Assembly (NCBI GenBank): GCA_951406725.2 | Contig: OX597824.1 | Location: forward strand, 87,234,001-87,298,000 | DNA from: Octopus vulgaris | Taxonomy: Eukaryota | Length of the DNA stretch: 64,000 bases | Direction of reading: 5' to 3' | In this document: positions 3,354-63,896 of the stretch, one piece after another | Position numbering within the stretch: position 1 is the stretch's first letter | Layout: every line of letters begins with the position of its first letter | Notes under the pieces: generated by a model | Seen by the model: only the letters and a program-made list of their open reading frames with translations | The model's database searches: none | Told to the model about the DNA's origin: nothing | Program-made: the position numbers and the translations under genes

Positions 3354-3560
3354 AGTTAAACCAAACATAAAAACACAAAGAGAATACACAACGCGAGGAC
3401 ATGGAACAAGTATAGTGTTATTGGATGCTCAGGAAAGGAAAGAAAGAAGGAGGATTTAACGTTTCGAGCGGAGCTCTTCGTCAGAAACATAGGAAAAGGA
3501 AAGATCCAAGGAAGGGAAGACGGAGGACAAAAATCGCCAACAATACACACACGGTCACAT
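3354..3560 (-). mobile_element. ~205-bp hammerhead-carrying short repeat (Penelope pLTR/retrozyme-like), family H1
   Basis: Second copy at 17996-18204; both sit in (TA)n; contains a minimal hammerhead. Confidence 0.7.
3454..3488 (-). ncRNA. Minimal type I hammerhead ribozyme motif
   Basis: Minus strand GUUU-CUGACGA-A-GAGC-UCC-GCUC-GAAA-CGUU-AAAU: intact core, 4-bp stem II, stem I, palindromic AACGUU in place of stem III. Confidence 0.75.
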
Positions 3561-3928
3561 ATATATATAAATCTTCAGTTAAATATATTCAATGAGAATA
3601 TTATGTACTGAATTTATATTCAGTGCTCGATTGTATCAAAGTATTAATACTATTAAAGTATTTATATATTTAATACGAGCGATTATATATATATGTATAT
3701 TTTTTAAAATAATATATTATTATTAATTATAGGAAATCAATATCAGAAAGCTCCTCAGAAAGATATACACATGTGAATAACAATTGTTGTATACATATAT
3801 ATATATAGCCACAATGAGGATATTTAAACCTCTTATAGGGATATTTTATCCAAGATACACTGGTTTAATATATTGTATTTTGAAGAGATATTTCTTCAAT
3901 GAATACATTATATAAAACATCATAATTC

Positions 3929-4166
3929 ATCAAACGTTATTATCGAGTTAGAAAACAGAGAGAGATCTAATGGATACAAATTGATTTATCAATTACTTAA
4001 CATATTTACCTACAATTGTTTCATTTCACAAACAAAATTAATGTTTCGCAATTGTGATTTTGTTTGTGAAATGAAACAATTGCAGGTGATTATGTTAAGT
4101 AATTAATAAATCAATTTGTATATCCATTAGATCTCTCTGTTTTCTAACTCAATGATAATGTTTGAT
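3929..4166. repeat. Long fold-back palindrome (~110-bp arms, 14-nt loop)
   Basis: 3929-4040 is the imperfect reverse complement of 4055-4166. Confidence 0.9.
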
Positions 4167-4197
4167 ATTTATTATATATATATATATATATATATAT

Positions 4198-4465
4198 AAA
4201 TTAGAGAAAAAACCACTATTATGCAACTCAAACATTGATAGACATAAACCAATACATAAATAACAAATAATATATATTTTTATAAAACATATAACTTATA
4301 ACTAGATCTCAAAAAGTATAAAAATGAATGATCAATATATAATATATTAATTAATATAATATATTTTTTAATTAATATATTATATATTGATCATTCATTT
4401 TTATACTTTTTGAGATCTTTTCAATGTTTGAGTTGCATAATAGTGGTTTTATCTCTAATTTATAT
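4198..4465. repeat. Nested inverted repeats
   Basis: Outer arms ~4198-4238 / 4421-4465; inner arms ~4304-4354 / 4369-4418. Confidence 0.85.
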
Positions 4466-5188
4466 ATTTATACCGGGAAATTTGATTTAATACTAAATTG
4501 AATTTTTCCCTGTAAGTTTGGAGTTATACTCCCTAATGTTATTATTATTATTATTATTATTATTATTATATATATATATATATATATATATATATATATA
4601 TATATATAGGGATAAATCAACGTCAGTGTTTCTGAAAAGAAAAAGATACAAAGGACACAAAAAGAGAAATGCCATTATAATTATAAAAAAAGTTTAAATA
4701 AATTGATGAACTTTCACCTAAATCTAGCGAAGTAAATTTTGGTCTAATCACCATGAAATGATAGAAAAACCATCGAATGATAATGAAGTGTTTCAGATAA
4801 CACCTGATGATTATTAGGTATTTCTTATCTGGATTTACAAGAAAAATATTCAAGTAACGAAGCAAAATTATATTTAAAGAATAAAAATGACACAAGTTTT
4901 TTATTTTACTAATTTCCATTTTTCTTAAATGAAAATAGAAAAAATGCTTAATAAATATAGACACAGTCAAGGCTGTGTGGTTAAGTGGTTAAGAAGTTCG
5001 CTTTGCAACCACATGGTTCTGGGTTCAGTCCCTCTGCATAGGAAATTTGACTGCTATTTCTAGTTAGTTCAGCCACTACATAAAGACCTATTCATTATCT
5101 GGAAAGCATCTTTATAGTAAGTGCAACTCAAGGAAGACAACACAAAAAATCTTGCTATAATTTTCTTCAGGTTTGTAAGATTTCAAGT

Positions 5189-5494
5189 TACTTGGTGACC
5201 CTGCTAGTGCTGGGGCCCACTTAAAAAGCATCCAGTCCACACTGTAAAGTGGTTAGCATTTGGAAGGGCACCCAGCAGTAAAATCCATGCCAAACTGACC
5301 TTGCCAGTACTTGCGCCACATAAAGGGCACTGAGTCCACCCTGCAGAGTGGTTTGTGTTAGGAAGGGCATCCAGCCATAAAAACCCTGCCAAAACAGACA
5401 CAGAAGTCTGCTGCAGGCTCCTACCTGACCAGCCCCTGTCAAACCATCCAACCCATGCCTGCATGGAAGGCGGATATTAAACGATGATGATGAT
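5189..5494 (+). mobile_element. RTE-tailed SINE-like element
   Basis: AGGAAGGGCATCCAGC block plus CCCATGC..GCATGGAA..TTAAACGATGATGAT tail shared with more than 10 copies. Confidence 0.75.
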
Positions 5495-5804
5495 TTCAGT
5501 TTTGCACAGCAATCTATTGTAATGCTTATTAATTATACATTACATCTCTACATCCACAAAGAGCTCTGTTCCGTAGCCTCTTCCACGGCACACGTATAAA
5601 GCTAGGTGGTCTGAATTAGTGAGAGCTAAATGCCTTTTTCCAGGCATGAAGCCTGTTAGTGGACAGGATACAGACCATTGACTCATGTGTCAGCAAGCTG
5701 ACACTCCATTGACACCACAAGCTAACATTTTTGCTCTAAATAGAATAACAAATCAATGGCAAAACATGTACATCGTTTATCAATTTGAAAATATAAAAAA
5801 TATA

Positions 5805-60984: not shown

Positions 60985-61400
60985 TATCTATCTATCTATC
61001 TAATCTATCTATCTATCTATCTCTCTATCAATCAATCAATCAATCAATTAATCAATCAATCAATCAATCAATCAATCAATCTATCTATCTATCTATCTAT
61101 CTATCTATCTATCTATCTATCTATCTATATATATATATATATATATATATATATATATATATATATATATATATATATATATATACATAATAATAATAAT
61201 AATAATAATAATAATAATAATAATAATAATAATATTAATAATAATAATAATAATAATAATAATTAATATTATTATTATTATTATTATTATTATTATTATT
61301 ATTATTATTATTTGAGGGAATATTATTCCTAACTTACAGGGAAAAATTCAATTTAGAAATATATATATATATATATATATATATATATATATATATGTAT
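60985..61400. repeat. (TATC)(TCAA)(TA)(AAT)(ATT) compound microsatellite
   Basis: Direct. Confidence 0.95.
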
Positions 61401-61837
61401 GTATAAGGATAAGATCAATATTTAAATACTGATCTTATCAGGTGGCCAGCATGGGAATAAAAACCTTTCAAAGGTAATAATTATTAAAAATTATAATTTA
61501 GGGTTTCTAAGAGATACCACCATGCTGGAAATAGCAGCCAAAACTTGACTCTAAAACCATATTAAATGTTCATACAGCACCAGGGGAGAAGACAAAGAGA
61601 CAAAATAAACTAGCAAAAAATTATTGGATAATTCCAGATCCTGGATTTCTGGCTCTGCATGAGAAATGCTTTGTTTTCATCAGTGAATTATAAATAAGGG
61701 CAAAAGAAAAACATTTTTTATGCCAATATGCTGTAAAATAGACTTTAGATTGTCTAACAAAATACATTTTAAATGATCTGAAGTCTATTTTTCAGTATAT
61801 TGGCATAGGAATTTTTTTTCTATTTTTTAATTTTTTT

Positions 61838-62400
61838 TTCATTTCATCTAGTTTCAGCTCATGAGCTGTGGCCATGCTGGGGCACCACCATTTGGTTTTG
61901 CTACATAGTTTTACTTCACGAATGCTTTTTAGCAATTGACAATTGGTGCATGAGAGAGTTTGATGCAGCTGCCCTCATCTGCACCTCCTGCCGTGAAGTT
62001 GGTTTATCTGGGACACCTGACAGGAAGAGATCCAGCTTTATTTTGAAGACACCTACATCCACCCCATGCAGGTCTCTCAGATCCTTTGGGAGGATATTGA
62101 AGAGCTGTGGACCTCTGAAACCCCGGCTATTGCAGTATCTTGTCCTACATCTTGATGGCAAATTTGGAGTCCTTGGCACAATGCAGTGGCGCCCAGTTCT
62201 AGTATTTGTGTAACTCTCAATGCCAAAGTTTGGGACAAGTCCTTCCAGGATTTTCCAGATGTATTTTATGGCAAATCTTTCTTGCCTACGCTCTAAGGAA
62301 TAGAGTCTTAATCTTTTGAGTCTTTCCCAATAGCTTATATGCTGCATAGAGGCTATCTTCTTCATGTAGCTTTGTTGGATTGCCTCAAGTTCTGAGATTA
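61838..62400 (-). mobile_element. CR1-group LINE 3' end (ORF2 C-terminus and 3' UTR)
   Basis: YWERLKRLRLYSLERRQER...IWKILEGLVPN...GPQLFNILP...FKIKLDLFL. Confidence 0.85.
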
Positions 62401-62483
62401 ATTTATTTATAATTGTTTATAATTTTCACCTTAGAAGGTATTTTAATATGCTGGCCACTGATAAGGTGACCAACATATTAAAA

Positions 62484-63585
62484 AATAATTAGAAAATAGA
62501 GAAAACCACAGATCAACCACATTTATTGCTTATTTTTTAATACAAAGCATGAGATAACAAAATAGGTGACGTAACATATCTTATGGCCATTACTGATCAG
62601 ATTGCCAAAATGCAGTCTATACATAAATGTGAGAATAAAGTTCTTCATTTTCATAGGGCATTCGAATTAAGGCAACAGATCTTCATCAGAGTGAAAAACA
62701 ACGAAAGGAAGAAGGAAAAGGAATGAAAACATGATATATTGAGCTTCTAGATTATTTGTCTAAGCCATGTTTTCTTTCCTTTTCCTTCTTCCTTTTGTTT
62801 ATATTGTGGAGGCACGTGGCTTAGTGGTTAGGGTGTCAGCATCATGATTATAAGATCGTGGTTTCGATTCTGGGACCAAGCGACGCGTTGTGTTCTTGAG
62901 CAAAACACTTTATTTCATGTTGCTCCAGTCCACTCAGCCGGCAAAAATGAGTAACACTGCGATGGACTGGTGTCTCATCCAGGTGGGGAACACATACACC
63001 ATGGAAACCGGGAAACCGGGCCCATGAGCCTGGCTAGGCTTTGAAAAGGGCGCATTTATTTTGTGGAGGTGCATGGCTTAGTGGTTAGGGTGTCAGCATC
63101 ATGATCGTAAGATTGTGGTTTCGATTCCTGGACCGGGCGATGCGTTGTGTTCTTGAGCAAAACACTTCATTTCACGTTTCTCCAATCCACTCAGCTGGCA
63201 AAAATGAGTAACGCTGCGATGGACTGGCATCCCATCCAGCTGGGGAATGCATACGCCATTGAAACTGGGAAACTGGGCCCATGAGCCTGGCTAGGCTTTA
63301 AAAGGGCGCATTTATTTATTTTATTATTTTTGTTTATATTAAATGCTCTTGTTTTTCACTCTGATGAAGATCCGTTGCCTTAATTCTAATGCCCTATGAA
63401 GATGAAGAATTTTATTCTCACCCTTACGTATAGATTGCATATTGGCAATCTGATCAGTAATGGCCGTAAGATATGTTACGTCACCTATTTTGTTATGTGA
63501 TGCTTTGTATTTTATAAAATAAGCTATAAATGTGGTCCTGTCAATGTGTTGGTTGATCTGTGGTTTTCTCCGTTTTTAATTATTT
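62484..63585. repeat. ~250-bp-arm palindrome interrupted by a SINE dimer
   Basis: 62484-62732 mirrors 62766-62805 plus 63341-63585. Confidence 0.85.
62806..63327 (+). mobile_element. Head-to-tail dimer of tRNA-headed SINE-D
   Basis: Two ~256-bp units (62806, 63063); 13-bp TSD TTTTGTTTATATT at 62793-62805 and 63328-63340. Confidence 0.9.
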
Positions 63586-63858
63586 GCATTGATCCCTGAT
63601 AAACCCTTGTTTATTCTGTTGTTGTCTGTACTTTACATGTATGGTGTGCCTGTACACCAATGTCCAGGGATAATACAGGTAACGGATACCGATAGCATAT
63701 ACGGATATTTTATCCCTTAGTCAGATACTATAATCATTAACTCTGTATACATATATATATAACGGGAAGGTTTACTAAAATAAACAAAAGACGAAGGCAG
63801 GTGGAGTACAAACAAACAAATGTATTAGTATGGCGCTCAGGAATAGAAATAGAACAAG

Positions 63859-63896
63859 TCTTTTACGTTTCGAGCCTACGCTCTTCGACAGAAAGA
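63859..63896 (-). ncRNA. Minimal hammerhead motif, A6U variant (family H3)
   Basis: UCUUU-CUGUCGA-A-GAGC-GUAG-GCUC-GAAA-CGUA-AAAGA. Confidence 0.65.

Follow-up and report, generated by a model that had tools for sequence, protein, structure and literature searches.

Minimal hammerhead motifs and their repeat units

The stretch of Octopus vulgaris DNA analyzed here (the window; 64 kb) contains seven minimal hammerhead motifs, referred to below by the position of their first core base. All seven were found where the original prediction had placed them, its coordinates being the low ends of the motifs (Table 1). As claimed there, one extra purine follows the core in every motif (A in six, G in one), and the GAAA box is separated from stem I' by exactly 4 nt in each. 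Stem III is missing throughout, and the short palindrome described in its place is present in six motifs but broken in 44405. Stem I comprises 3–5 bp in six of the seven, with letters that differ from family to family; in 44963 it has only 2 bp. Six motifs have a G10.1-C11.1 pair, which is G10.1-U11.1 in 18336. Both core boxes (CUGANGA or its U3-A8 variant, and GAAA) are whole in five motifs. One box is broken by G12A in 44963 and by A6U in 63891, each base being intact in the sister copy, and both of these remnants are predicted to be inactive. In terms of overall status, three motifs are fully intact (3484, 18128, and 8439), two are impaired, and two are without a conserved core base.

Table 1. 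Hammerhead motifs, repeat units, and neighboring elements in the window
Feature	Position	Strand	Details
Family A hammerhead, intact	3454..3488	-	Core 3484; stem II 4 bp, stem I 4 bp
Cleavage site of the 3484 motif	Predicted cut between 3458 and 3457	-	GUU
Family A repeat unit with the 3484 motif	3355..3560	-	TA repeats at, or at most 10 nt from, both ends
Family E hammerhead, U3-A8 core	8406..8442	-	Core 8439; stem II 5 bp, stem I 3 bp; AUU site
Family E head-to-head inverted duplication	8308..8544	.	Arms 8308-8391/8461-8544 (89%) and 8434-8448/8450-8464 (100%)
Decayed PLE ORF 3' end	13229..13954	-	RT thumb, eroded linker, GIY-YIG
Family A repeat unit	17997..18217	-	Flanked by two (TA)15 runs
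Family A hammerhead, intact	18098..18132	-	Core 18128; GUU as cleavage site, with the cut predicted to fall after 18102
Family B unit, second upstream context	18250..18365	-	Followed by (TA)15; AT-rich repeat D sequence before
Family B hammerhead	18296..18341	-	Core 18336; stem I 5 bp, stem II 6 bp; U instead of C11.1 through decay at a CpG
5'-truncated restriction-endonuclease-type non-LTR LINE 3' end	44060..44354	+	Between (AAT)24 and (AAT)5
Family B unit	44371..44498	+	Directly behind (AAT)5; very repetitive; 3' end sharply defined at 44498
Family B hammerhead	44400..44445	+	Core 44405; palindrome broken, C15.2 to U
Family C hammerhead remnant	44957..44995	+	Core 44963; G12 to A, stem I 2 bp
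Family C repeat unit	63760..63980	-	Short (TA)n at both ends; ends set by eye
Family C hammerhead remnant	63859..63896	-	Core 63891; A6 to U, stem I 5 bp; GUA site

The motifs fall into four repeat families. Six belong to the two-copy families A (3484, 18128), B (18336, 44405), and C (44963, 63891), in which the sister copies lie 14–26 kb apart; the two A copies are 88% identical over 210 nt. The seventh, 8439, represents family E. The inverted duplication of this family starts some 9 nt upstream of the core, and an internal deletion has removed the hammerhead from its + strand arm. The description of several short, non-coding, microsatellite-associated families was borne out, several of the four adjoining (TA)n or (AAT)n. 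Specifically, of 14 unit ends, 8 have a (TA) or (AAT) run of at least four repeats no more than 10 nt away, compared to 3% of other positions, a contrast whose p-value is inflated because several ends were set by eye at such runs. For A3484, A18128, and C63891, this applies to all six unit ends. No Rfam hammerhead match was obtained in two sub-windows containing four of the motifs, and a further Rfam listing has no hammerhead among the 150 of 262 matches listed.

Motif frequency and stem I covariation

If these were chance matches in repetitive, AT-rich DNA, motif frequency should equal that in shuffled sequence. A perfect-core descriptor gave four matches (3484, 18128, 18336, and 44405) and none in any of 30 local dinucleotide shuffles, and a descriptor admitting the U3-A8 core while requiring G10.1-C11.1 likewise gave four (3484, 8439, 18128, and 44405) and none in any of 200 shuffles. 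When two core mismatches are freely allowed, the descriptor is at background (mean of 1.7 matches per shuffle), and 8439 therefore stands only as a published covariant core. The single-strand folding z-scores of six motifs, which range from −1.8 to +0.2, are also unremarkable and agree with a chance origin. Against it stand the strict descriptors, the membership of six motifs in two-copy families, and covariation of stem I in relatives outside the window. We consider chance a negligible explanation overall, and for families A, B, and C it is refuted.

The outside relatives were retrieved with a pattern for the motif shared by families A and C. In a covariance model built from 26 of these loci, the six motifs outside family E rank first in the window, with E values of 1e-10 to 6e-3, and the next match has an E value of 0.29; owing to how the loci were retrieved, the scores of the A and C motifs are partly built in. 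Stem I had been left out of the search pattern and nevertheless covaries. Its pair 2 is formed in 40 of the 51 distinct letter sets, whereas shuffles average 20.9 and none of 5000 reaches this count, and 26 hand-picked diverse loci display 21 stem I changes on both sides, where 9.4 are expected (0 of 500 shuffles as high). The stem covariation that the original prediction had proposed as a check was seen for stem I pairs 1 and 2 of the outside relatives, but not for pairs 3 and 4, where it does not exceed that in shuffles.

Probable relation to Penelope-like elements

The motifs share with the minimal type I hammerheads that Cervera & de la Pena (2014, PMC4209133) reported from the pseudo-LTRs of metazoan Penelope-like elements (PLEs) the core, the extra nucleotide before stem II, the G10.1-C11.1 pair, a two-base palindrome (15.2-16.2) replacing stem III, an NUH site, and a stem I of 3–5 bp, and this match to the published consensus favors an origin from PLEs. 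The frequent U17, the several families per genome, and the mostly single dispersed copies are alike as well, and the U3-A8 core is a published variant, found in the Schistosoma mansoni (4) row of Fig. S3 of that study. Among the rows of its alignment that we inspected, none is from a cephalopod, and the molluscs are Lottia and Crassostrea. The assignment of the octopus motifs to the PLE kind of minimal type I hammerhead is thus supported. PLE hammerheads lie in the pseudo-LTR, downstream of an ORF with RT and GIY-YIG; in the window, no motif was seen joined to a PLE ORF, which counts against a PLE origin of the units.

In other animals, the motif does occur behind PLE ORFs. The A/C pattern identified 117 metagenome loci, and in four of them (L006, L023, L064, and L076) a frame with a CX2-5CxxC linker and GIY-YIG ends roughly 95–680 nt upstream of the motif on the same strand, L023 additionally having the RT YxDD motif. 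The other 113 gave no GIY-YIG match; 37 of these are at most 629 nt long. Linker, C-terminal GIY-YIG, and a bias for microsatellites are features of Neptune-clade PLEs (PMC8557442), which the A and C families resemble through these four loci and through the (TA)n surroundings of A and C63891, although the linker is also present in Nematis. The commonest group of outside loci is one base from the Acropora row of Fig. S3, listed as Neptune in Table S1 (PMC4209133). A GAGC word lies 27–29 nt behind the motif in all four A and C copies; it is found at +15 to +55 in 30 of the 38 loci of the group that includes the PLE-linked L023 and L076, compared to 3 of 63 in the other group. An inverted copy adjoins the motif in 22 of 109 outside loci, as at 8439, and inverted 5'-truncated neighbors together with a (TA)n bias are hallmarks of PLEs (PMC8557442). 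According to the supplement of PMC13282606, 190 PLE families account for 6.83% of the O. vulgaris assembly. For family B, there were no relatives in viral and prokaryote scans, the metagenome scan having covered the A/C pattern; this family has no PLE-linked outside relative, which speaks against a PLE end in its case.

Taken together, the four families are probably 5'-truncated PLE 3' ends, i.e., solo pseudo-LTRs, that would be inactive in place. Solo copies of minimal motifs occur genome-wide elsewhere and have been described as 'probably related to truncated PLEs' (PMC4209133). We infer a PLE parent for each octopus family, as well as the cleavage and the insertion route, which, in line with published work on PLEs, may proceed as follows. 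An active PLE transcribed from a partial tandem would yield an RNA with two motif copies, and these could join through pairing of the A15.1-N-N-U16.1 palindrome, forming a double hammerhead with weak cleavage after H17; minimal PLE hammerheads are expected to cleave only as dimers. The PLE GIY-YIG nuclease would nick the target, with (TA)n as the likely site for families A and C, and the RT would copy the RNA from its 3' end, usually halting after 100–250 nt and sometimes adding an inverted truncated copy, as might have happened at 8308-8544. The inserted single copies would be partnerless and decay neutrally. Every copy continues past the predicted cut site, for about 58–105 nt downstream, which suggests that the copied RNA was uncut or religated there.

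The behavior of the copies was compared with that of their flanks. Substitutions in motif and flank number 2/35 and 19/170 for family A, 3/43 and 4/46 for B, and 6/36 and 7/51 for C (all p > 0.5), and 5 of the 11 motif substitutions are of CpG type; in this test, which has little power with two copies per family, the motifs decay like their flanks, with no sign of selection. Dimers across families would have a stem I of only 0–1 bp for the neighboring pairs A18128/B18336 and B44405/C44963 and are predicted to be impossible, and no compatible dimer partner was found close to any copy in the window.

Alternatively, the 130–240-bp units could be self-standing non-autonomous elements derived from PLE pseudo-LTRs, resembling retrozymes but with minimal hammerheads, with tandem master loci elsewhere in the genome and monomers amplified by PLE enzymes. 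The two A copies have nearly the same ends, both in (TA)n, and B has a sharp 3' end and a very high summed depth, as would be expected of such elements; the 5' end of B at 44371 and the similar A ends could be fixed ends of this kind, an observation at odds with truncated PLE ends. In addition, a 2026 preprint (bioRxiv 10.64898/2026.07.22.740005) derives both tandem retrozymes and dispersed monomers from PLE pseudo-LTRs and accepts minimal motifs. Non-LTR retrozymes as described there and in PMC7229834 are, like the octopus units, short, non-coding, PLE-related, and equipped with a type I hammerhead, and may occur as dispersed monomers. In the original paper (PMC7229834), however, they form head-to-tail tandems of at least two units with canonical hammerheads, which have contacts between loops 1 and 2, minimal ones being assigned to PLEs and Terminons, and they give rise to linear and circular RNAs of unit length. 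The octopus copies are single, minimal, and partly decayed. None of the 119 tandem-repeat rows of the window contains a motif, there are no head-to-tail units, and the hammerheads are not of canonical type I (stem I of at most 5 bp, no stem III), so the units fall outside the retrozyme definition. The two B copies also differ upstream of stem I, and a truncated PLE insertion gives the same picture with fewer assumptions. We therefore regard self-standing elements as unlikely. Accordingly, the proposal of ribozyme-bearing retroelements is upheld as regards PLE-kind minimal hammerheads in several short families, whereas the pieces of about 130–240 bp are possible, though improbable, candidates for self-standing elements.

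The GIY-YIG remnant, placed by the original prediction at 13229-13576, is real (PF01541, E value 4.9e-6) and longer, reaching about 13954. Its closest relative, P0001, is 39% identical over 236 aa (E value 1.9e-40) and has the CX2-5CxxC linker that is eroded in the window. No sequence of the remnant recurs in any of the four families, and a covariance model scan found no hammerhead near it. Judged from its sequence, it is not the parent of any of the four families, which counts against their PLE origin, and it is only circumstantial with regard to mobilization by Penelope enzymes.

Family B, the adjoining LINE, and the number of motifs

Family B has a further possible carrier. At 44060-44498, the order is LINE C-terminus, 3' UTR, (AAT)5, and B, the LINE piece consisting of the last 65 codons and the 3' UTR. 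Its relatives P0004–P0006 are 75–82% identical, all three with a PD..D endonuclease motif and P0004 and P0006 with a CCHC finger, and the LINE is presumably Dong/R4-like. Contigs from three DNA runs (447, 510, and 404) depart at the 3' end of B, with a consensus agreement of 0.43–0.44. Summed depth, which is no copy number, is 0.8–5.2 million across the LINE part and B, with its peak over B, compared to 49 in unique flank (run X1). At position 15.2 of the 44405 palindrome, C accounts for 63–75% of the depth. Family B is very repetitive, with likely 10^4–10^5 copies. The lack of any drop in depth between the LINE fragment and B also counts against a PLE end at 44405.

One interpretation, restricted to this family, is that the hammerhead is a 3' extension of the LINE behind (AAT)n, copied by the LINE enzyme. 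The order of the elements, the depth that tops over B as at LINE 3' ends, and the short tandem unit in which B ends are all compatible with it. However, LINE and B may each be abundant independently, and only one of the two B copies in the window is joined to the LINE 3' UTR, the 18336 copy having a different upstream sequence. The contigs break at the AAT run, and some continue from the LINE tail into more AAT or another LINE piece instead of B. Moreover, (AAT)n lies on both sides of the LINE piece while the 3' flanks of B are not (AAT)n, and other repeats in the window likewise begin directly after (AAT)n. A protein search with a frame bridging LINE and B gave no match. We find the LINE extension distinctly improbable. 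An equally doubtful possibility is that B represents a hammerhead-bearing module, about 150 nt long, freed from its Penelope parent and sitting behind the (AAT)n tail of the presumed Dong/R4-like LINE in about 10^5 copies. There is a parallel in R2, which has an HDV-like ribozyme at its 5' end, and certain LINEs and SINEs also make use of ribozymes of the hammerhead or HDV-like type (reviewed in PMC6765202). At 44405, B is similarly a motif of a self-cleaving class adjoining a site-specific LINE, but it is a hammerhead, on the 3' side, and a single instance.

As probable PLE ends, the motifs are ordinary in kind, single-copy minimal hammerheads of PLE ends having been published for many animals. 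The motif class is already described; these octopus families were not found in published literature. What is added are four octopus families without an Rfam match, among them one whose core is of the rare U3-A8 form, and an indication of how numerous the motifs may be. For a genome of O. vulgaris size (2.8 Gb), and with the window taken as representative despite having been chosen for its motifs, seven motifs per 64 kb extrapolate to about 3x10^5 per genome (95% range 1.2–6.3x10^5), and family B to about 9x10^4 copies (1x10^4 to 3x10^5). This density and the repetition of B appear far above the 2,000–9,000 motifs per genome of PMC4209133, and the largest published count that we found is up to 120,000, for axolotl.

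A very large family would permit strong analyses of covariation and decay and a test of cutting in trans by solo intronic copies. If B were indeed a freed module, it would be a hammerhead-bearing 3' passenger of a LINE, and together with the remaining families, for a total of about 3x10^5 motifs should the window be typical, it would make the octopus genome the richest in hammerheads in the cited literature. Pre-mRNAs could in that case be cut in trans, through pairing between intronic copies that belong to one family.

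State of the seven hammerhead motifs

All seven hammerhead motifs of the original prediction are present in the sequence, and each has the geometry claimed for it: a core box and one extra purine follow stem I, and a GAAA box and four bases separate stem II from stem I′. We name each motif by the first base of its core and assign the seven to families A, B, C, and E. The further claim of a short palindrome throughout holds except in 44405, where the palindrome is broken. Three motifs are intact, two are impaired, and in two a conserved core base has been replaced. By established hammerhead chemistry, the loss of such bases should abolish cleavage, and because of their G12A and A6U changes, respectively, 44963 and 63891 should be unable to cleave.

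Features of the window
Feature	Position	Strand	Remarks
Motif, family A	3484	-	intact
Motif, family E	8439	-	intact
Motif, family A	18128	-	intact
Motif, family B	18336	-	impaired; stem II closed by G-U
Motif, family B	44405	+	impaired; palindrome broken
Motif, family C	44963	+	G12A
Motif, family C	63891	-	A6U
GIY-YIG remnant	13232-13648	-	PF01541, E 4.9e-6
AT-rich repeat D	206-423	+	
AT-rich repeat D	4540-3974	-	
AT-rich repeat D	18365-18498		
AT-rich repeat D	61311-61361	+	
Inverted pair, first arm	62483-62701	-	85% to second arm
Inverted pair, second arm	63349-63585	+	
Hairpin between arms	62699-62801		
Cytochrome b fragment	34227-34574	-	PF00033, E 2.9e-21
Open frame	35622-35915	-	presumably resembles C-terminal end of Tc1/mariner transposase
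Open frame	61916-62416	-	presumably resembles C-terminal end of LINE reverse transcriptase
Short stretch	43950-43985	+	ends just before (AAT)24
LINE piece	44060-44354	+	

Strict descriptors exceed shuffled sequence, as the original prediction would have it: a perfect-core descriptor yields four matches in the window vs. none in each of 30 shuffles. Allowing one core mismatch also recovers 63891 (shuffle mean 0.13), and allowing two brings the descriptor to background (shuffle mean 1.7). With the U3-A8 core allowed and G10.1-C11.1 required, there are four matches including 8439, and none in each of 200 shuffles. By single-strand folding, only 8439 stands out from shuffles, and there a hairpin beside the motif drives the score. 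That the motifs are chance matches is, on the descriptor counts, extremely improbable. A covariance model built from 26 outside loci, which favors A and C by construction, ranks the six non-E motifs top with a gap before the next match, and an Rfam search gave only microsatellite noise among the matches listed. A reading of 8439 as a chance hit or a degenerate motif was also rejected, its core being the published covariant U3-A8 core, in agreement with the S. mansoni (4) row of Fig. S3 in PMC4209133.

The window has a G+C content of 36.7% and is dense in microsatellites and in SINE-like repeats, which we take to be OK-type. Self-comparison reveals three copy pairs, A (87%), B (91%), and C (77%), with stem II and one downstream word common to A and C, while E is a single copy inside a head-to-head inverted duplication beginning ~9 nt upstream of its core. 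Motif positions show no extra conservation over flank positions in any pair, a comparison of low power, and 5 of the 11 motif changes are CpG-type. In a double hammerhead, stem I forms between copies, the 5′ strand coming from one and the 3′ strand from the other. The neighbors A18128/B18336 and B44405/C44963 give only 0–1 bp and therefore cannot complement each other as heterodimers; stem I of A and C could pair (2–3 bp), yet their same-strand copies are >14 kb apart.

Relatives of families A and C outside the window

The A/C pattern, from which stem I was left out, matches 117 loci among metagenome contigs. The pattern of family B has no match in viral and prokaryotic contigs. A cysteine linker and GIY-YIG frame lie upstream on the same strand at four of the 117 loci, one of which also has RT motifs; the search found no such match at the other 113, many of them short. 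Of 51 distinct letter sets, 45 pair at the first position of stem I (as high in 2 of 5000 shuffles) and 40 at the second (as high in none of 5000), whereas at positions 3 and 4 pairing is not above shuffle, so that the covariation expected of the stems is borne out among these relatives for the first two positions only. Both-side stem changes number 21 vs. 9.4 in 26 of the 117 loci, picked for diversity, although covariation tests of this sort are inflated by sequence kinship. A partial inverted copy lies at most 120 nt upstream of the motif in 22 of 109 loci, and the commonest outside motif is one base off the Acropora row (entered as Neptune) of Fig. S3 in PMC4209133. By eye, many of the loci (L001-L117) seem to start only ~5–10 nt upstream of the hammerhead core, like E, and such start points may be a preferred truncation or template-switch point.

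The word GAGC occurs downstream of the motif in all four A/C copies of the window, and in 30 of 38 loci of one outside group vs. 3 of 63 of the other. It lies ~26–45 nt from the motif and persists in widely separated animals within one group of ends of Penelope-like elements, or PLEs (L007, L021, L023, L076, and others). Although GAGC complements the 3′ strand of stem II, its predicted pairing probability in the four window copies is 0–0.09, and a folding switch against stem II was rejected; the word may be a protein-recognition signal.

Origin of the motif-bearing units

The seven motifs are probably 5′-truncated 3′ ends of PLEs. High 5′ truncation, inverted copies alongside, and microsatellite bias are traits of these elements (PMC8557442). 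The association with microsatellites stands, with 8 of 14 unit ends within 10 nt of (TA)n/(AAT)n, vs. 3% of positions, though several ends were placed by eye. According to PMC4209133, the motif sits in both pseudo-LTRs of PLEs, monomers show no cleavage and dimers or trimers a low level, and most motifs occur singly and scattered, probably derived from truncated PLEs; cleavage was seen in one of nine dimer elements tested in bioRxiv 10.64898/2026.07.22.740005. Because each copy in the window spans the predicted cut site, the PLE RNA template would have been uncut or religated there. The original prediction instead favored non-autonomous retroelements. The motifs are indeed of the minimal PLE type, but no tandem array in the window contains any of them, and we regard self-standing non-autonomous monomers as an unlikely source. 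Different families may have followed different routes.

The predicted GIY-YIG remnant is real, and it aligns over 236 residues, reaching back to 13954, with a related protein (P0001) that carries the cysteine linker. It represents the eroded 3′ end of a PLE, but the link to the ribozymes fails: there is no hammerhead nearby and no sequence in common with A, B, C, or E. We therefore rejected it as parent of any motif family; it shows only that PLEs were active here.

Several other repeats and fragments are present. In each arm of the inverted pair, an intact first hammerhead box, followed by the extra purine and G, lies ~12–17 nt after the start; pyrimidine-rich sequence precedes the box, as in A. 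Neither stem II nor a GAAA box could be parsed in the arms, between which two SINE-like copies accompany the hairpin. This repeat may be a fifth family of PLE ends whose ribozyme is decayed or unusual. Repeat D begins directly after (TA)n/(AAT)n runs, forms nested inverted repeats at 3974-4472 (arms of 65 nt, 51 nt, perfect, and 52 nt), and has related sequence upstream of B copy 18336. The cytochrome b fragment is likely mitochondrial DNA copied into the nuclear genome, and a Pfam search of the two open frames gave no match.

O. vulgaris PLEs amount to 191 Mb (6.83%, 190 families; PMC13282606) and giant squid has 235 Rfam hammerhead 1 matches (PMC6962438). No paper listed in the literature searches describes hammerhead families of octopus. 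Supplements or the repeat libraries Repbase, Dfam, and that of O. vulgaris may already contain them as PLE consensus sequences. Short B or A/C words are absent from the searched portions of the supplements of PMC9115989 (without files 5–8 and the transcript FASTA) and PMC8557442.

Family B and the adjoining LINE tail

Upstream of 44405 lie (AAT)5 and a piece of a non-LTR LINE made up of its final 65 codons and its 3′ UTR; the endonuclease motif PD..D occurs in relatives of this LINE, as does a CCHC finger. The short stretch at the preceding (AAT)24 presumably resembles the 3′ end of another LINE family, which suggests insertions stacked in AAT tails. ESM Atlas matches of the LINE piece are unnamed clusters only. 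A reading frame that spans both B and the LINE 3′ UTR had, among 1.84 billion protein representatives, a single marginal match of low complexity, which is no evidence either way.

We mapped contigs of four sequencing runs to 44062-45200, requiring 80% likeness. In run X1 the word depths add up to 49 for the unique flank, 0.8–2.3 million for the LINE piece, 2.0–5.2 million for B, 0.1–0.5 million for the adjacent SINE, and 6–13 thousand for C; as these sums do not measure copy number and short contigs that overlap inflate them, we read the values only as "very repetitive". The shape recurs in X5 and X17 (other organisms by code), and an independent estimate from two B copies in 64 kb gives 10^4 to 3x10^5 copies. 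Run X2, RNA only on a guess, was given no weight for expression, as contigs reveal neither ends nor strand nor level. B stops sharply at 44498, followed by mixed flanks, and loose contig ends before 44387 indicate that the window copy is ~18 bases shorter at that point than other copies. The palindromic base lost in 44405 is retained by 63–75% of contig depth; the change at 44437 was rejected as private to the window copy, C being absent in 25–37% of depth too.

B adjoins the LINE piece, with high depth unbroken across both, and could thus alone be a passenger of the LINE. This is quite improbable, since the upstream context of the 18336 copy differs, some LINE tails continue into more AAT or another LINE piece, the 3′ flanks of B are not (AAT)n, and other repeats in the window also start after (AAT)n.

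The O. bimaculoides protein named in its source as dystrobrevin isoform X1 (P0002) shares 23 identical residues with the B translation, which makes Octopus the likely source of the DNA. The protein begins with B sequence (window 44410-44478), to which an inverted part of the stretch found upstream in the 18336 type (18337-18363) appears to be attached; this start is likely an exon derived from a repeat, or else an annotation artefact. Dong-R4 occupies 93 Mb in O. vulgaris (PMC13282606), and the abundance of B and its tie to the LINE tail are the points that merit a genome-wide look.
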